Of a DNA stretch of 32,000 nt, positions 75-7,222 are shown piece by piece. The position numbers were made by a program, and so were the translations under genes. Under the pieces are notes generated by a model. It saw only the letters and a program-made list of their open reading frames with translations, made no database searches and had not been told where the DNA came from. Within the stretch, counting starts at the first letter, position 1; each line of letters begins with the position of its first letter. This DNA is from Prochlorococcus sp. MIT 0801 (GTDB taxonomy: Bacteria > Cyanobacteriota > Cyanobacteriia > PCC-6307 > Cyanobiaceae), in contig NZ_CP007754.1 in the NCBI RefSeq assembly GCF_000757865.1, forward strand, positions 1,890,001 through 1,922,000, written 5' to 3'.

Positions 75-860
75 CTATATAGGAATTGGAAATGTCACTT
101 CAGCTGGCTTTGGAGAGCAAGCTTCTACTTGAAAATCCACAACTGAACCTATTACAACAATCGCAGGAGACCTTATATTTTCTTCTTGAACTCGGTCAAA
201 AAGCTTTACCAAAGGGCTCTTAATATAACGTTGACCAATAACAGTACCCTGCTCAATTACTGCCGCAGACGTCTCAGGATTCATACCACCAGCAATCAAC
301 TCTGCTGAGATAAATTTTAAATTATGAACACCCATATATATAACGATTCCATCACTGGATTTCGCTAAAGACCGCCAATTTACAGCTGGGCGTTTTTTAT
401 CAATCCCCTCATGTCCAGTCACAAAAGTGACTGAAGATCCAGCACGTCTATGAGTAATAGGTATCCCAACATAGGCAGGAGCAGCTATACCTGATGTAAC
501 CCCAGGTACTACTTGTACTGGAACCCCTTTTTTATGAAGATAAGAAGCTTCTTCCGCACCTCTACCAAACAAAAATGGATCACCACCTTTTAATCTAACA
601 ATACAAGAATAACTCTTTGCTAAATCAAATAAAATATCATTCGTTGTCCTCTGAGGAACCGAATGATGACCACGCCTCTTACCCACTGAATGAAGTTGAC
701 AATTTGAAGAAACTAATTCAAGTAGCTCTATAGGAACTAAAGAGTCGTATACAAGCGCATCACATTTACTAATTAGTTTTTGCGCTTTAACTGTTAATAA
801 ATCGGGATCACCAGGACCTGCTCCGACAAGATGCACAGTGCCAAACTGATTTGTATTCAT
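75..860 (-). CDS. cobA: uroporphyrinogen-III C-methyltransferase (SUMT; makes precorrin-2 for siroheme/cobalamin)
   Basis: 261-aa ORF. It has the N-terminal VHLVGAGPGDPDLLTVKA and internal LKGGDPFLFGRG motifs typical of the SUMT/tetrapyrrole methylase family. The ATG at 858-860 overlaps the upstream gene's stop (ATGA on the minus strand). Confidence 0.9.
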   Translation of the reverse strand: MNTNQFGTVHLVGAGPGDPDLLTVKAQKLISKCDALVYDSLVPIELLELVSSNCQLHSVGKRRGHHSVPQRTTNDILFDLAKSYSCIVRLKGGDPFLFGRGAEEASYLHKKGVPVQVVPGVTSGIAAPAYVGIPITHRRAGSSVTFVTGHEGIDKKRPAVNWRSLAKSSDGIVIYMGVHNLKFISAELIAGGMNPETSAAVIEQGTVIGQRYIKSPLVKLFDRVQEENIRSPAIVVIGSVVDFQVEACSPKPAEVTFPIPI

Positions 861-1750
861 GGCAAGTTACCCAAAATATTAACAAGACCACGATGAATAA
901 TATCAATCTCAAGCAAAGATTTAAGCTGCTCTCCTTTACTATCAATTTCTACATTTTTGTTTGGAGTCAAAAGATAGGGAATAGGAAGATAATTCTTCTC
1001 CTTTTTAACAGTATCTTGATTCCATCTAGACCATGAATAAAGAGGAATATTTAGGAATTTTTCTAAGGACTTAAGAAAAACATCTGAAGTATCTGAAGAG
1101 ACAGGGTGATGAATCAACGCAGGTTTAAGAAAAGGACTCTGACTAGTTATCAGATCATCTATTAATGATAGCCATGGTATAAAAGAACCTAGGAAAGGAA
1201 ACAATTTTATATTTTGTCCCTCTTCTTGCAAACGTTTAAATATTTTTGGTACATCAATACAAACATGACTTCCAGGTAACAAAAAAAGAGGAACTAAAAA
1301 CACTGATCTATTACCGATGTCAATTTGCTCTGGATTGTCATCAGTTAAAGCCTCTATTGAAACAGAGCGATTTTTATGCCTTTTTAATTGGTCAACCAAA
1401 GAAAGAAGAGATGGATGTATCTCACCACCTCTAGAACCATGCACTAGTAAATGTAAATGGTGAGGAGGCTCACAATTAATTCTATTTGGTAACAAAGACA
1501 ACTTTTGATGGACATCTGAAGATGTATTAGTACTTTCAGCTAATTTATTAAAATTGAGATGATGAGAAATTCTAGATACTCGAGAACAAATAATTTCAGG
1601 CGAGGAGAGGGGGTTGATCGAAGAAACACTCAATACAGAGGAAGAAAAAGATTCAAAAGTACTTTTCATAGAGACCTCTTTGCTATGAAAGAGGTTTGGG
1701 AAATGCTCAAAAGTGGAGCGATTAGAAGCCTCGGAGAAATTGGACGCCAA
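857..1750 (-). CDS. CbiX/SirB-like class II chelatase (candidate sirohydrochlorin ferrochelatase) with a Ser-rich N-terminal extension
   Basis: 297-aa ORF. HLLVHGSRGGE and VFLVPLFLLPGSHVCIDVPKI resemble the CbiX motifs (xxxGHGSR; PLFLxxGxHxxxDIP). The track start at 1750 is TTG and the first in-frame ATG is at 1669 (MKSTFESF), so the true start is uncertain. The stop overlaps the cobA ATG. Confidence 0.6.
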   Translation of the reverse strand: MASNFSEASNRSTFEHFPNLFHSKEVSMKSTFESFSSSVLSVSSINPLSSPEIICSRVSRISHHLNFNKLAESTNTSSDVHQKLSLLPNRINCEPPHHLHLLVHGSRGGEIHPSLLSLVDQLKRHKNRSVSIEALTDDNPEQIDIGNRSVFLVPLFLLPGSHVCIDVPKIFKRLQEEGQNIKLFPFLGSFIPWLSLIDDLITSQSPFLKPALIHHPVSSDTSDVFLKSLEKFLNIPLYSWSRWNQDTVKKEKNYLPIPYLLTPNKNVEIDSKGEQLKSLLEIDIIHRGLVNILGNLP

Positions 1751-1903: not shown

Positions 1904-3565
1904 ATGGTTCAATACTATCTCGAAGGCAAAAAACTAAATCAAGTTGAAAAAAATAAAGCTGCTAAGGATGGACTCGAAATCGGAAAGGATATAGACAAAT
2001 TTGCTGAAATGGGATGGGAGCAAATGGATAAAACTGATTTAGAATTAAGATTGAAATGGTATGGGATGTTTTGGAGACCCAAAACCCCTGGAAAGTTTAT
2101 GTTAAGGTTAAGAATACCTAATGGAATAATCAATGCAGAACAATTAAAGGTAATTGCATCAATTGTTGCGAGATATGGAGAGAATGGAAGTTGTGATATA
2201 ACAACTAGGCAAAATATACAACTTAGAGGTGTTTTGATTAGTGATTTGCCTGAGATATTAAATAGGTTAAAAAAAGTAAACATATCAACAACTCAATCTG
2301 GATTTGATAATCCAAGAAATGTTACTGGAAATCCCATCGCTGGAGTTGATCCAGAAGAGATTATAGACACAAGAATATATACATCAAAAATGCAAGACCA
2401 TTTAACTAATGATGGTAAGGGAAACTCAGAATTTTCAAATCTTCCAAGGAAATGGAACACAGCTATAGCAGGCTCTAAGGATAATTTTCTTTTACATAAT
2501 GATTTAATTTTTCATCCAGTTAAAATTAATGGGGTTTTAGGTTTTAGTGTTTGGATTGGAGGCGTACTTTCATCAGTAATGAATGAATATGCAGTTCCGT
2601 TGAATGCCTGGGTTGAAGAAGAAAAAATTTATGAATTAACATCAATTATTTTATCCCTATGGAGAGATAATGGGGAACGTAATATAAGACCTAAAGGTAG
2701 GTTTAGATTTTATTTAGATAAAATTGGCATTGAAACATTTAGAGATCTTATCGAAAAACAATATGGAACATTAAAAGAAGATCCAGGCTCAATATTTTCA
2801 GATAAACCAAGGTCATTTTTTGGAATTCATTCTCAAAAACAAGAAGGTAAATATTTTGCAGGAATTCATGTGCCAGTAGGCCGTCTTTTGGCTGAAGATT
2901 TACAAGATCTAGCAAATATATGTGAGAATTTTGGTGATAAAGAAATAAGACTTACCGAAGATCAAAATATTATTATTACTGGTATAGATACAAATCTAAT
3001 TGAAGAATTTAAGGAGCAATCTATCTTACAAAAGTTTCCATTAGAACCAGAAACTATTGCAGCAGGTACTGTTTCTTGTACTGGAAATACCTATTGTGGT
3101 TTCGCTCTAACAAATACAAAGGATCAAGCTTTAAAAATCTCGCATGAATTAGACAAAGAATTAGATTTGAAAGACGAATTAAAGATTCATTGGACTGGGT
3201 GTCCTAATAGTTGTGGTCAAGCCTATATGGGAGGAATTGGTTTAACGGGCAAAAAAGCTAAAGACAAAGAAGGAAAAACCGTTGAAGCTTATGATATAAG
3301 CATTGGTGGATCACAAGGGCCTAATTATAAATTAGGAGAATTAATAAAAAAATCTGTCCCTCAAGATGAATTAAAAGATGTACTAAAAGATTTACTTATT
3401 TCAGATTTTGATGCAAAAGAAAAAATATTTTTAAGTAAAAAATCTGGTTCATTATCTCGATTTATGAATTGGTTTAGTCCTCTTGGCAAAGATAAACCGC
3501 TGATTAATCGAGCTAATGGCAGCCACGACATCTTTTCCAAATTTATGAATCGAATTAGCAATTAA
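1904..3565 (+). CDS. nirA: ferredoxin-nitrite reductase (siroheme/4Fe-4S) with a C-terminal extension of about 45 aa
   Basis: 553-aa ORF. It has two nitrite/sulfite reductase half-domains. The cluster-ligand cysteines are in SCTGNTYCGFA and WTGCPNSCGQ. An NtcA-box promoter lies upstream. Confidence 0.93.
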   Translation: MVQYYLEGKKLNQVEKNKAAKDGLEIGKDIDKFAEMGWEQMDKTDLELRLKWYGMFWRPKTPGKFMLRLRIPNGIINAEQLKVIASIVARYGENGSCDITTRQNIQLRGVLISDLPEILNRLKKVNISTTQSGFDNPRNVTGNPIAGVDPEEIIDTRIYTSKMQDHLTNDGKGNSEFSNLPRKWNTAIAGSKDNFLLHNDLIFHPVKINGVLGFSVWIGGVLSSVMNEYAVPLNAWVEEEKIYELTSIILSLWRDNGERNIRPKGRFRFYLDKIGIETFRDLIEKQYGTLKEDPGSIFSDKPRSFFGIHSQKQEGKYFAGIHVPVGRLLAEDLQDLANICENFGDKEIRLTEDQNIIITGIDTNLIEEFKEQSILQKFPLEPETIAAGTVSCTGNTYCGFALTNTKDQALKISHELDKELDLKDELKIHWTGCPNSCGQAYMGGIGLTGKKAKDKEGKTVEAYDISIGGSQGPNYKLGELIKKSVPQDELKDVLKDLLISDFDAKEKIFLSKKSGSLSRFMNWFSPLGKDKPLINRANGSHDIFSKFMNRISN

Positions 3566-3854
3566 TTCGATTTTATAAAAAATTATTTTTCTAACTTTTT
3601 AAATTTATGACTCAAAGTACTTCTCAAATGAGCTACGTCTTACCTAAAGATTCTATTTCTCGTTTCATGAATTGGTTTAACAACCTTGGTAAAGATAAAC
3701 CGCTGATTAATCGAGCTAATGGCAGCCACGACATCTTTTCCAAATTTATGAATCGAATTAGCAATTAATTCGATTTTATAAAAAATTATTTTTCTAACTT
3801 TTTAAATTTATGACTTCAAGTGCCTCTCAAATGGACTATGTCCTACCAAATGAA
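3449..3854 (+). repeat. tandem direct duplication, period 203 bp (unit 3449-3651 repeated at 3652-3854)
   Basis: Hand alignment at a constant offset of 203 shows no indels. Positions 3488-3611 are identical to 3691-3814 (124/124). The left arm has about 28/39 matches and the right arm about 29/40. Confidence 0.9.
3607..3768 (+). CDS. chimeric small ORF (53 aa): first 15 codons of a transporter-gene copy fused in frame to a copy of the NirA C-terminal tail
   Basis: It runs from ATG 3607 to TAA 3766-3768 and encodes MTQSTSQMSYVLPKDSISRFMNWFNNLGKDKPLINRANGSHDIFSKFMNRISN. It is preceded by the same 41-nt spacer that precedes the transporter ATG at 3810. It is below the 60-aa ORF-track cutoff. 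Expression is unknown. Confidence 0.4.
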   Translation: MTQSTSQMSYVLPKDSISRFMNWFNNLGKDKPLINRANGSHDIFSKFMNRISN

Positions 3855-4721
3855 TTGGTAGATGGAATGATTGCTGCAGGTGGCAAGAAATCATCTGTAA
3901 GCGTAAAAAACTTGCTAATAAGAGGCTTCTATTCAGGAGCAATTTTAGGTTTAGCGACATGTCTTGCAATTACTATTGGTATTCAATCAGGGATGCCTTG
4001 GTTAGGTTCTTTTATATTTCCTTTTGGTTTTGCAAGTATCGTTCTTTTCGGTATGGAGCTTGTTACTGGTAATTTTGCGTTACTACCAATGGCTGTATGG
4101 GCTGGAAAGAGTTCTTGGTCTGCAACTGTAAGGAATTGGCTATGGGTTTGGATCGGTAATTTTCTAGGTACAGCATTTGTTGCCGTACTACTTTCAATTA
4201 GTTTATCAAGTGCTGGAAATGTAGATCCATTAACTGCTGCTGAAGGTGGAAAAGGATGGGCAGTTGTAGCAGCAAAAATAATAGCTATACATAAAGCAAA
4301 CACAGTTGTTAAATATGAAGCACTTGGAAGTACTGGTTTTTTCCTTGCATTTTTACGTGGAGTAATTGCAAACTGGCTAGTTTGTTTAGGTGTAACAATG
4401 GCACTTGTAAGTAAAAGTGTTCCAGGAAAGATACTTGCTTGCTGGCTACCTATAACTGCATTCCAAACAATGGGAATGGAGCACATAGTAGTTAATATGT
4501 TTTTGCATACAACTGGCCCTCTACTTGGTTCGGGTATTCCTTTTACAAAAGTAATTTTTTGGAATTTCTTACCAGTGACGATTGGAAATATTGTTGGAGG
4601 AATGGTATTTATTGGAATGCTTTTCTATAGCACCCACAAAACTCCTATCTCTAATGTTTTACCAGACGTAAAAGATGAAAAATTAGAACGAGAGCTCGAA
4701 GCACAACTTGGTGCAAGATAA
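3810..4721 (+). CDS. focA: formate/nitrite transporter family protein (FocA/NirC type; probable nitrite channel)
   Basis: 303-aa polytopic membrane ORF. It has the FNT-family motifs FGMELVTGNF and GNIVGG. It lies immediately downstream of nirA. Confidence 0.9.
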   Translation: MTSSASQMDYVLPNELVDGMIAAGGKKSSVSVKNLLIRGFYSGAILGLATCLAITIGIQSGMPWLGSFIFPFGFASIVLFGMELVTGNFALLPMAVWAGKSSWSATVRNWLWVWIGNFLGTAFVAVLLSISLSSAGNVDPLTAAEGGKGWAVVAAKIIAIHKANTVVKYEALGSTGFFLAFLRGVIANWLVCLGVTMALVSKSVPGKILACWLPITAFQTMGMEHIVVNMFLHTTGPLLGSGIPFTKVIFWNFLPVTIGNIVGGMVFIGMLFYSTHKTPISNVLPDVKDEKLERELEAQLGAR

Positions 4722-4751
4722 AATTAAAAAAATTAAATTTTAAACTAAATT

Positions 4752-4786
4752 AAGAAAGCCTAGAAAGTTGTATTCTAGGCTTTCTT
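4752..4786 (+). terminator. strong hairpin downstream of the transporter gene (probable intrinsic terminator)
   Basis: aagaaagcctagaa (4752-4765) pairs perfectly with ttctaggctttctt (4773-4786), giving a 14-bp stem and a 7-nt loop, 31 nt after the stop codon. There is no clean U-run after the stem, so efficiency is uncertain. Confidence 0.6.
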
Positions 4787-4860
4787 AATATGTCTACTAT
4801 TTAATAGTTATTAATAGGGTTTTAAAAAATTTTCCATTAATCTCTAAACAAATCAGATAC

Positions 4861-4890
4861 TTGACTTGATCAATAAACAAATAGTAAATT
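4861..4890 (+). promoter_or_regulatory. candidate sigma70-type promoter for the HEAT-like/TrpD-like pair
   Basis: It has TTGACT (4861-4866), an 18-nt spacer and TAAATT (4885-4890), about 50 nt upstream of the ATG at 4940 and downstream of the hairpin. It is a pattern match only, in AT-rich DNA. Confidence 0.25.
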
Positions 4891-4939: not shown

Positions 4940-5650
4940 ATGATTATTGAAGAAAGCAATATATGGGATACCATTAATAACGCGAAAAAAACCAAGCCAA
5001 GTGCTGAGTGGCTTAAGACTGCATACAATCCAAATATTAACTTTGAACTTAGACAAGAAATCGCTATTCGCTTGGGACAATTATCAAAAGTAGGATGGAT
5101 AAAAATAAAAGATCTACTTAAGACGTATGGAAATAAAGATGAACTAATCCTTGCTGCAGGACTTACTTATCAAGATGATGCCAAAGAATGGCTCTTAAAC
5201 CATCTTTATAGTGATGACACAATGAACATCAAAGTCGTAGAAGCTTTGGCTTGCTGGGGAGGAACCTTACCGATTGAGCTTATTAAAAAAACATTAGAAG
5301 AAAAAAGTGCAGAAATGAAAATAGCTGGTTTAGAATTATTAAAATTCAAAGCTCATTTACTTTCTGATTTTGATTTACTTGAGATAGCAAAATCTCCTTT
5401 AAATGATTTCAGAGAAGAGATAGTGATCAAAACACTGACAATAATTCAAAGACGTGAAAGCTTAAATATCTGTGAAGCAATCAGCGATGTAATACAAAAA
5501 GGCTCGGATAAATCTGCATACTATGGACTAATGGCTCTTGGTTCAATCGGTACTGAAATTAGTAAAAAAATCCTATTAGATTTAGTTAAAAATTTAAAGA
5601 ATACTGAGCGCAAAGAACTTGCAAAAAAACAACTTAACTTTGAAATATAA
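4940..5650 (+). CDS. hypothetical alpha-helical repeat protein (HEAT/PBS-lyase-like repeats)
   Basis: 236-aa ORF with repeated blocks of about 30-35 aa of helix-turn-helix character (for example VVEALACWGG, IAGLELLKF, VIKTLTIIQ, GLMALGSIG). Its stop is 6 nt before the next ATG, so it probably forms an operon with 5657-6715. Confidence 0.6.
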   Translation: MIIEESNIWDTINNAKKTKPSAEWLKTAYNPNINFELRQEIAIRLGQLSKVGWIKIKDLLKTYGNKDELILAAGLTYQDDAKEWLLNHLYSDDTMNIKVVEALACWGGTLPIELIKKTLEEKSAEMKIAGLELLKFKAHLLSDFDLLEIAKSPLNDFREEIVIKTLTIIQRRESLNICEAISDVIQKGSDKSAYYGLMALGSIGTEISKKILLDLVKNLKNTERKELAKKQLNFEI

Positions 5651-5656
5651 ACTCCA

Positions 5657-6715
5657 ATGACAAATAAATATGAAGAATTTAAAACCTATTTAAAAAAAAT
5701 AGGTAGTGGTGAGTTTACAGGAAAAAGTCTTACTCGCGAAGAAACTAAATCAGCTCTCATGCTGATGCTAAAAGAAGAAGCAAGTGCAGCCCAAATTGGT
5801 GGCTTCATGATTGCACATAGAATTAGACGTCCTATCCCTGAAGAACTAGCCGGGATGATTGATGCCTATATCGAACTAGGACCCAAAATTCAATCGCCCA
5901 GTAATCAACGTCAACCTATATTTTTTGGGATGCCTTTTGATGGTAGGAAAAAAACTGCACCTATTTATCCTCTGACAACTTTACTATTACTAACTCAAAA
6001 ACAGCCTGTTATTTTGCATGGTGGTTCTCGTATGCCAGTAAAATACGGCGTTACCCATAACGAACTCTTTCAAGCCTTAGGAATAAATTTAACCGGTCTA
6101 TCCATAGAACAATTGCAAAGTTTTTTCAACCATAACGACCTAGCTTTAATACATCAGCCAGATCATTTTCCGCTAGCTGAAAATTTAATTCCTTATAGAG
6201 ATCAAATAGGTAAGCGCCCACCTCTAGCAAGTATGGAATTAATCTGGACATGTCATCAAGGAAGTCATCTACATATAAGTGGCTATGTTCATTCTCCTAC
6301 TGAAGAAAGACATTGGAAGACCTTAGAACTTATGGGAGAACAAAATGTGATTACTATCAAAGGACTGGAAGGTGGAATAGATCTTTCAATAAGTCGTTCA
6401 TCAACAATTGGACAGTACAAAAATCAACATGGAACTAGAACTGTTTTTCATCCAAAAGACTACGAATGTTCTGGAAAAGATGTTGAATGGAGCGACATCA
6501 CAGAATGGAAGAAATTTGCTTTACAAGCTCTTCATGGCGAGGGTCCTTTAAGTAAAGCACTTGAATGGAATACTGGTATTTACTTTTTTTATGCAGGTAT
6601 AAGCTCTGATATTAAAGAAGGAATAAATAAAGCAAAAGAAGTAATCAATTCAGGATTTGCTCTCAAGCAATTAGAAAAATTAATTCATTGGAGTGACGAA
6701 AATATTGATTCCTAA
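5657..6715 (+). CDS. anthranilate phosphoribosyltransferase-like protein (glycosyltransferase family 3 fold; divergent TrpD paralog, function unknown)
   Basis: 352-aa ORF. The N-terminal helical domain (LTREETKSALMLMLKEEASAAQIGGFMIAHRIRRPIPEELAGMIDAY) matches the Glycos_trans_3N pattern. The canonical GTGGDG and KHGN(R) motifs are replaced by GMPFDG (5927-5944) and LHGGSR. Confidence 0.65.
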   Translation: MTNKYEEFKTYLKKIGSGEFTGKSLTREETKSALMLMLKEEASAAQIGGFMIAHRIRRPIPEELAGMIDAYIELGPKIQSPSNQRQPIFFGMPFDGRKKTAPIYPLTTLLLLTQKQPVILHGGSRMPVKYGVTHNELFQALGINLTGLSIEQLQSFFNHNDLALIHQPDHFPLAENLIPYRDQIGKRPPLASMELIWTCHQGSHLHISGYVHSPTEERHWKTLELMGEQNVITIKGLEGGIDLSISRSSTIGQYKNQHGTRTVFHPKDYECSGKDVEWSDITEWKKFALQALHGEGPLSKALEWNTGIYFFYAGISSDIKEGINKAKEVINSGFALKQLEKLIHWSDENIDS

Positions 6716-6733: not shown

Positions 6734-7222
6734 TTAATACAAAGTTTTTTCCATCAAATAACGAGAAAAATGCACACCACCTATTTGGATTTCCTCAGGA
6801 GCAATAATTGTCCATCCATGACGTAAAAGCAGTTGATAACTACATAAACTTGCCTCAGTTTTTAAAGTTATTGGCTTATCTGTAAGAGTATCTGCCTCAA
6901 TTTGATGTAATAGAGCCGTAGCATGCCCCTGCCGGGACGAACGCCCTCGGCAATAAAGCAATGCCAAGCGATTATGGGGATATTTTAAAGCAAATGCTTC
7001 AATCGTTTTATCAACACAACTCACCCAGCCCACCCCTTGCTTCAAAGGTTTATCTAAAATCCCAGGAAGATATGCCAAAGCCGACCACGCTTCAATCTGT
7101 TCTTGGCTGTACAAGGATTTATCGCAAGTTCGAATAGCATCTTCATAAACTTCTCTAAGAGCCATTTCATCAAAACTCTCACAAGGTCGCAAATATCGAT
7201 TTAGACTGCTAAATGAAGCCAA
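6734..7222 (-). CDS. GNAT-family N-acetyltransferase
   Basis: 162-aa ORF. It has an acetyl-CoA-binding motif-A-like segment, LLYCRGRSSRQGHATALLHQIE. The track start at 7222 is TTG, and an in-frame ATG (MALREVY) lies 18 codons downstream. The gene is noticeably more GC-rich than its neighbours. Confidence 0.7.
   Translation of the reverse strand: MASFSSLNRYLRPCESFDEMALREVYEDAIRTCDKSLYSQEQIEAWSALAYLPGILDKPLKQGVGWVSCVDKTIEAFALKYPHNRLALLYCRGRSSRQGHATALLHQIEADTLTDKPITLKTEASLCSYQLLLRHGWTIIAPEEIQIGGVHFSRYLMEKTLY

Follow-up and report, generated by a model that had tools for sequence, protein, structure and literature searches.

A CnaT-family protein of TrpD fold and a candidate NirB counterpart at the nitrite-assimilation locus of Prochlorococcus sp. 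MIT 0801

Introduction

The genes for nitrate and nitrite assimilation of Anabaena are laid out as a nir operon (alr0607-0612), nirB (all0605) and ntcB (all0602) (PMC7699953), and cnaT corresponds to all0601 according to the title of a reference listed in PMC9430850. The CnaT protein of heterocystous cyanobacteria is described in the same source, as a secondary citation of a phenotype obtained in Anabaena, as acting positively on transcription of the nir operon for nitrate/nitrite assimilation, and cnaT is also named there as a positive regulatory element in the nitrate cluster of Synechococcus WH7803. NirB is reported to be needed for maximal nitrite reductase activity; the CnaT and NirB phenotypes are cited through PMC9430850, PMC10161378 and PMC7699953. 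Here, two adjacent open reading frames (ORFs) of Prochlorococcus sp. MIT 0801 are considered, ORF1 and ORF2, which lie downstream of the ferredoxin-nitrite reductase gene nirA in a stretch of 32,000 nucleotides (nt) of contig NZ_CP007754.1 (positions 1,890,001 to 1,922,000 of the forward strand). This whole stretch is called the window, and coordinates are those of the window unless another locus is named. It is likely, in our judgement, that ORF2 is CnaT, a protein that has the fold of the anthranilate phosphoribosyltransferase TrpD without being a phosphoribosyltransferase, and that ORF1 is a HEAT-repeat accessory of the nirA cassette and the counterpart of NirB, the two not forming an obligate unit.

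The fold to which ORF2 belongs is best described in TrpD, where the GTGGD motif, the beta2-alpha6 loop and an Asp-Glu (D-E) pair serve in binding of phosphoribosyl pyrophosphate (PRPP) and Mg (PMC9835598). The related TrpD2 proteins have no PRPP motif and bind DNA (PMC9835598; PMC10123104). The YbiB protein of Escherichia coli is not catalytic; its basic groove, with the conserved residues R92 and R123, binds nucleic acid and the acidic ObgE tail (PMC10123104). The two ORFs are the following.

4940..5650, + strand: ORF1, a HEAT-like (PBS-lyase type) alpha-solenoid protein of 236 amino acids (aa)
5657..6715, + strand: ORF2, the cnaT orthologue (NF005635/PRK07394), TrpD fold, TrpD2-like, 352 aa

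ORF2 is a member of the CnaT family

ORF2 contains the Pfam domains Glycos_trans_3N (E 1.2e-13) and Glycos_transf_3 (E 2.9e-9), and public annotations give 'anthranilate phosphoribosyltransferase (family protein)'. The NCBIfam equivalog model NF005635/PRK07394, with a cut-off of 287 bits, is matched with 545 bits over profile positions 2-346 of 348. Below cut-off are the scores for the YbiB model NF006005 (94.1 bits, cut-off 185), which is the highest among the non-cognate NCBIfam models, for PRK09071 (88 bits, cut-off 257) and for the TrpD model TIGR01245 (66.9 bits, cut-off 199). Assignment to the class II nucleoside phosphorylases was tried and rejected, as the protein, with its 352 aa, has no extra C-terminal domain and the thymidine phosphorylase model NF003338 gives 15.6 vs 434 bits.

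The family is linked to CnaT by gene order in filamentous cyanobacteria. When one genome was scanned per GTDB species, a relative of ORF2 turned up in at least 505 genomes, and the counts that follow refer to the best 80 loci of these at least 505 genomes, all 80 being from filamentous cyanobacteria. In Nostoc sp. MG11 (locus L082) nrtA and nirA, both on the reverse strand, are followed on the other side by genes for a Rieske protein (135 aa), a HEAT protein (432 aa), a LysR regulator and an NF005635 protein; the last gene (L082 10001-11101), downstream of the ntcB-like LysR gene, scores 554 bits on NF005635. Since this is the published Anabaena gene order, the NF005635 gene of Nostoc sp. MG11 sits at the cnaT position, and by this comparison ORF2 is, on the grounds of sequence, the Prochlorococcus orthologue of CnaT, a family already named in marine Synechococcus. 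In 76 of the 80 filamentous loci the CnaT homologue has a LysR gene upstream of it on its own strand, and in 36 a NirB-type HEAT gene is likewise placed. The gene for the small Rieske [2Fe-2S] protein (PetC-like, 135 aa; L082 6742-7149) has nirA on one side and the NirB-type HEAT gene on the other in 5/80.

ORF2 resembles CnaT (All0601) of Anabaena/Nostoc sp. PCC 7120 in length, in the invariant loop motifs and in being embedded among nitrogen genes. In picocyanobacteria, cnaT clusters with nitrate/nitrite genes in the window and in eight other places, and five loci (L090-L094) are without nirA. A close relative (L095), known from a long-read assembly with many frameshifts, so that its fragmented genes were left out of the tally of pseudogenes, carries directly 3' of the cnaT position the molybdopterin genes mog, moaD, moaE, moeA, moaC, mobA and moaA together with a nitrate-reductase-associated gene (L095 8341-13464), so that cnaT lies within a full nitrate cluster in strains that use nitrate.

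The rebuilt active-site loops

On alignment to Xanthomonas TrpD (4hkm) with HMMER and with MAFFT, GMPFDG (5927-5944, + strand) falls on GTGGDG, LHGGSR (6014-6031, +) on KHGNRS and GLEGGIDLS (6362-6388, +) on GRDGMDELS. The segment 6014-6049 (+) encodes LHGGSRMPVKYG where TrpD has KHGNRSVSSKSG, and its residues P127, K129 and G131 are the same in all 97 family members. The D-E pair of TrpD has become D242-L243, also invariant, the second Mg-binding acid being replaced by Leu. Thus, all the catalytic signatures of TrpD that were examined are replaced, whereas ORF2 keeps the two-domain fold and, in the beta2-alpha6 loop, the K-x-G element.

The replacements follow a fixed pattern. In an alignment of 97 CnaT sequences, 24 residues never vary in the loops that correspond to the active site of TrpD, and these loops can be written as: (i) G-x-[PA]-[YF]-D-G-R-x-[RK]-T-A-P; (ii) H-G-G-x-x-M-P-x-K-x-G, with Gln in place of His in 11/97; (iii) Y-R-x-x-I-G-K-R-P-P; (iv) G-[YF]-V-H-P-P-T-E; and (v) K-G-L-E-G-x-x-D-L. 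An exhaustive search among 1.84 billion representatives returned 1038 relatives of ORF2, 30 of them at E <= 1e-30, and similar motifs ([PA][YF]DG / HG..(P)PK.G / G.EG) are present in 80 of the 82 full-length 50%-cluster representatives nearest to it, GTGGD being found in 1/82. Within a large TrpD2-like clade, CnaT thus makes up a subfamily of cyanobacterial proteins and is not a TrpD remodelled on its own.

The AlphaFold model of ORF2 (predicted local distance difference test, pLDDT, 86.8) has the TrpD architecture of a helical bundle and an alpha/beta domain, with template modelling (TM) scores of 0.73-0.80 to TrpD structures in Foldseek at 15-21% identity. The conserved loops coincide exactly with the segments modelled at lowest confidence, which would fit loops that are gated by a ligand. 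Like YbiB and the other TrpD2 proteins, as defined in PMC9835598, ORF2 has the TrpD fold without the GTGGD PRPP motif, and the YbiB motifs SYNGARK / HGVSEDPTR / HGTEGE are a variant of the CnaT pattern, x-[YF]-[DN]-G and G-x-E-G being found in both. Invariant R97 and [RK]99 of CnaT lie within one residue of R92 of YbiB, and R123 of YbiB aligns with invariant K129, although the alignment of these loops is uncertain. The isoelectric point of ORF2 (6.7) is not diagnostic for nucleic-acid binding. Unlike YbiB, CnaT has no LexA/dinG context and forms a distinct cyanobacterial subfamily associated with nitrogen clusters.

These results bear on an initial annotation of the two ORFs, drawn up from the sequence alone, which had pointed out the three motif replacements, suggested a link to nitrogen assimilation and argued against a second anthranilate phosphoribosyltransferase. 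The replacements are all there on alignment, the nitrogen link is real and, with the three PRPP/Mg motifs replaced and TIGR01245 at 66.9 vs 199 bits, the argument is upheld. However, ORF2 can no longer be called uncharacterised, belonging to a family with a genetically characterised nir-operon factor that is annotated in marine Synechococcus (as cited in PMC9430850), nor is the rewritten PRPP site special to it, as the 80/82 relatives with similar motifs make clear.

ORF1 is lost with nirA at the loci examined, cnaT is not

The genes and signals around the two ORFs, from one end of the locus to ORF1, are the following.

75..860, - strand: cobA, uroporphyrinogen-III C-methyltransferase of the siroheme/corrin branch (NF004790, 303 bits; PF00590)
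857..1750, - strand: CbiX-like protein of 297 aa, candidate sirohydrochlorin chelatase (PF01903, E 8.5e-7, a weak match)
1804-1817 and 1838-1851, + strand: two canonical NtcA boxes, GTAN8TAC, upstream of nirA
1904..3565, + strand: nirA, ferredoxin-nitrite reductase (NF007125, 877 bits)
3810..4721, + strand: focA/nitM-type formate/nitrite transporter gene (PF01226, E 1.3e-62)
4749..4789, no strand assigned: hairpin with a stem of 17 bp, 3' of focA
4861..4890, + strand: promoter-like TTGACT-18-TAAATT, 50 nt 5' of ORF1, a match to consensus only

ORF1 and ORF2 share strand and reading frame and are separated by 6 nt; in the window lineage the hairpin at 4749-4789 stands between nirA-focA and ORF1; coordinates, gap and position after the hairpin are as initially annotated. 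At the junction (5648-5659) the stop codon TAA is followed by two codons (ACT CCA), and read-through would yield a HEAT-CnaT fusion, of which no sign was seen. Both ORFs are conserved with synteny across many Prochlorococcus and Synechococcus genomes, and are therefore real genes rather than chance ORFs.

Conservation of the two genes takes different forms. The order nirA-(micro-ORF)-focA-ORF1 is kept in all the other picocyanobacterial places whose locus carries nirA (8/8), and the distance between ORF1 and cnaT varies. In two marine Synechococcus, one of them RS9917, ORF1 directly adjoins focA or overlaps it, and ORF1 and cnaT are separated by cynS on the opposite strand; in LLIV-type Prochlorococcus, ORF1 starts 13 nt after focA and ends 447 nt before cnaT; in other Prochlorococcus lineages the two genes are 81-153 nt apart.

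The relatives of the window locus numbered L090-L094, in which presence or absence of nirA, focA and ORF1 was judged at the locus only, separate the genes further. In L090, L091, L093 and L094 the order is pabC, cobA and, divergently from cobA, cnaT, and tblastn finds the cbiX-like gene, nirA, focA and ORF1 absent at the locus. L092 retains the cbiX-like gene, lacks nirA and focA, and has ORF1 as a two-frame pseudogene (L092 5285-5985) directly 5' of an intact cnaT. A metagenomic protein (P0154), in which NirA residues ~41-136 are joined to the C-terminus of ORF1 from 'NDFREE', is the scar of a deletion. The cbiX-like gene, divergent from nirA, is part of the variable cassette, being absent from and kept in the same loci as just listed, and cobA, which flanks the nitrite cassette, is syntenic in the nirA-less relatives too.

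The cnaT gene is intact in 5/5 of these loci, with the 24 family invariants kept apart from one K-to-R change. Its ratio of nonsynonymous to synonymous substitution rates (dN/dS) is 0.11-0.22, and 0.116 between two nirA-less loci, which indicates purifying selection. The divergent cobA|cnaT spacers of L090, L091, L093 and L094 (86-104 nt; e.g. L090 5915-6000) share 86% column identity. As the spacers are homologous although dS of cnaT is about 1, the nirA-less arrangement is therefore old. The conserved spacer also suggests a promoter region shared by cobA and cnaT.

From this pattern of loss it follows that ORF1 is part of a variable nirA cassette and that cnaT is one of the conserved backbone genes. 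They lie directly side by side in the window lineage alone and are not an obligate unit. The initial annotation had treated them as a two-gene unit, which does not hold in view of the intervening cynS, the 447-nt gap and the loss of ORF1 while cnaT is retained; to its question whether the pair tracks nirA, the answer is yes for ORF1 and no for ORF2.

ORF1 as a HEAT-like protein and its comparison with NirB

No Pfam or NCBIfam model matches ORF1 itself at E <= 0.01, and a sequence search of the PDB gave nothing meaningful. By profile search, its family consists of proteins of 236-260 aa found only in Prochlorococcus and marine Synechococcus, 25/26 of which match HEAT_2 at E <= 0.1 (best 2.7e-9). 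The AlphaFold model is an all-helical solenoid of 15 helices (pLDDT 93.2, predicted TM score 0.84), whose top structural matches in the PDB are HEAT-like alphaRep proteins (TM 0.68), then importin-alpha, deoxyhypusine hydroxylase and CpcE/F. The solenoid model and the HEAT_2 matches of the relatives agree with the HEAT-like character initially assigned to ORF1.

Among described proteins, alphaRep and the PBS-lyase HEAT-like proteins (CpcE/F, NblB) have the same fold and repeat type, and NirB (All0605, and NirB of Synechococcus elongatus) shares with ORF1 the HEAT_PBS-type repeats and a gene placed between nirA and cnaT and on the strand of the latter, the repeats of ORF1 being much more degenerate than those of NirB. 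When ORF1 is compared with the HEAT proteins at the NirB position, hhalign gives a probability of 93.9% over 183 columns, while single-sequence HEAT controls (n=2) give 0.4-5%. ORF1 is plausibly, by protein class and gene position, the picocyanobacterial counterpart of NirB.

Proposed roles and the points that weigh against them

The proposed nitrite-reductase cassette would comprise the cbiX-like gene, nirA, focA and ORF1, with ORF1 as its short HEAT-repeat accessory and the product of the cbiX-like gene as a candidate for a dedicated sirohydrochlorin ferrochelatase serving NirA. ORF1 may be a protein-binding scaffold or chaperone for NirA that aids maturation or activity of the holo-enzyme, an idea put forward because NirB is needed for maximal nitrite reductase activity, because ORF1 is lost together with nirA and because a siroheme-chelatase candidate belongs to the cassette with cobA adjacent. 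In CnaT, the strictly conserved, rebuilt loops between the domains may bind an anionic ligand, such as a phospho-metabolite, a nucleic acid or, in a YbiB-like manner, an acidic protein segment, and binding of this ligand would promote expression of nitrogen-assimilation genes. The role of CnaT in Prochlorococcus is probably wider than nir activation and outlasts the loss of nirA, since cnaT is retained where the locus is without nirA.

Several observations weigh against these assignments and have to be set beside them. The retention of cnaT at nirA-less loci fits poorly with a purely nir-specific activator. In filamentous cyanobacteria cnaT follows ntcB, whereas the picocyanobacterial loci have no LysR gene there; with NtcB not beside cnaT, the Anabaena regulatory circuit is not simply transferable. 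Furthermore, the CnaT and NirB phenotypes come from organisms other than picocyanobacteria and reach us through secondary citations, so that their extension to Prochlorococcus is by analogy, and no expression data under nitrogen stress were found in the literature for either gene in Prochlorococcus. The sequence GTAN8TAC occurs five times in the window, which is not above chance, only the pair 5' of nirA being suggestively placed, and there is no such box in the window between focA and ORF1 or preceding ORF1 or ORF2. As for NirB, single NirB sequences give an hhalign probability with ORF1 of only 0.4-67%; the ORF1 profile matches the alphaRep structures of the PDB with 26.7 bits (E 2.8e-5), and NirB does no better (20-30 bits); and ORF1, with 236 aa, has about half the length of NirB (364-474 aa) and falls short of the roughly 350-430 aa expected for a NirB protein. 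In the light of the fairer single-sequence and alphaRep comparisons, ORF1 is therefore a counterpart of NirB by class and position, and orthology is not claimed.

Alternative explanations

A further reading, less likely than not, is offered tentatively: in Prochlorococcus, CnaT, kept intact in an old and stable cobA|cnaT arrangement without nirA, focA and ORF1, might do more than switch on nitrite/nitrate genes and might serve nitrogen control at large as a sensor of ligands (or as a catalyst) in genomes that have lost NtcB, and ORF1 might be a dedicated chaperone of the bilin-lyase HEAT class for NirA maturation or siroheme insertion.

It is rather unlikely that CnaT works as an enzyme on a new substrate, which ORF1 could present, and carries out another glycosyl, phosphoribosyl or phosphorolytic reaction with a product needed for nir expression or nitrogen metabolism. 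The state of the loops speaks in its favour, as they are rewritten and invariant rather than decayed (D95-G96-R97, P127, K129, G131, R181, K186-R187, E194 and H212, and further T215-E216, K235, E238 and D242), K129-x-G131 coincides with K-S-G of the phosphate-binding loop of TrpD, and the motif loops, modelled with low confidence, are probably mobile like the ligand-gated loops of TrpD (PMC9835598); the dN/dS of 0.11-0.22 can be counted on the same side. However, the glycine-rich loop for the 5'-phosphate is lost, as is one Mg-binding acid out of two, the characterised relative in the clade, YbiB, is non-catalytic and binds nucleic acid and acidic peptide instead, and no genes that could supply a substrate are consistently adjacent to cnaT.

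That ORF1 and ORF2 are the subunits of an obligate two-subunit complex is improbable and largely refuted by gene content. The genes do share strand and frame in the window with 6 nt between them, are neighbours in other Prochlorococcus lineages, and a HEAT gene shares the cluster with cnaT in filamentous cyanobacteria, but cynS separates them in Synechococcus and a gap of 447 nt in the LLIV type, and cnaT is intact without ORF1 in the five related loci L090-L094.

A phycobilin-lyase or NblB-type HEAT protein that is a neighbour only, with no role in nitrite assimilation, is a very improbable identity for ORF1. PBS-lyase-type repeats, the structural match to CpcE/F (5n3u, TM 0.50) and one relative of ORF1 that weakly matches the CpcE model point in this direction; nevertheless, ORF1 has no lyase family membership, no NCBIfam lyase or NblB model being matched at E <= 0.01, its gene context differs from those of CpcE/F and NblB, and its position after nirA-focA is fixed in Prochlorococcus and Synechococcus, where it is deleted or decays with nirA-focA.

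Finally, the TrpD fold, the glycosyltransferase family 3 Pfam domains and the public annotation would suit a true paralogue of TrpD that works as a second anthranilate phosphoribosyltransferase, an idea with hardly any probability left, given GTGGD->GMPFD, HGN->HGG and DE->DL, a TIGR01245 score below cut-off and 15-21% identity.

Neighbouring features

A weak-GNAT gene (6734-7222, - strand) is convergent with cnaT across a gap of 18 nt, with no functional link evident. It is kept at this position in most Prochlorococcus loci examined and is missing in L087 and in Synechococcus RS9917 (L085), while L086 has there an unannotated minus-strand ORF of 200 aa.

The end of nirA and the start of focA are affected by a tandem duplication of 203 nt (3448-3650 and 3651-3853), the copies being 90% identical. 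Duplicated with it is a conserved micro-ORF that in other picocyanobacteria is found between nirA and focA and encodes 44-47 aa, e.g. MQSTSQARDLFSRFVNWLSNSGSDKPAINQKEGGRDVFSRLMNTISG, with the internal repeat D[LF]FSR[FL]xNW / DxFS[RK][LF]MN. Copy 1 continues the reading frame of nirA and extends its product by ~45 aa at the C-terminus (NirA of 553 aa vs 513-544 aa elsewhere), and copy 2 is an ORF of 53 aa (3607-3768) whose first 16 residues duplicate the start of focA.

Significance

Much of what the locus contains is known biology, ORF2 being cnaT and its altered active site a feature of the whole clade. What is new is that the HEAT gene ORF1, a candidate equivalent of NirB, behaves in the loci examined as part of a mobile nirA-focA cassette, and that Prochlorococcus loci without nitrite reductase conserve cnaT, a fact for which its published role as activator of the nir operon offers no explanation. 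Both points concern the use of nitrite and nitrate, a trait of key importance among ecotypes of the ocean's most abundant phototroph.

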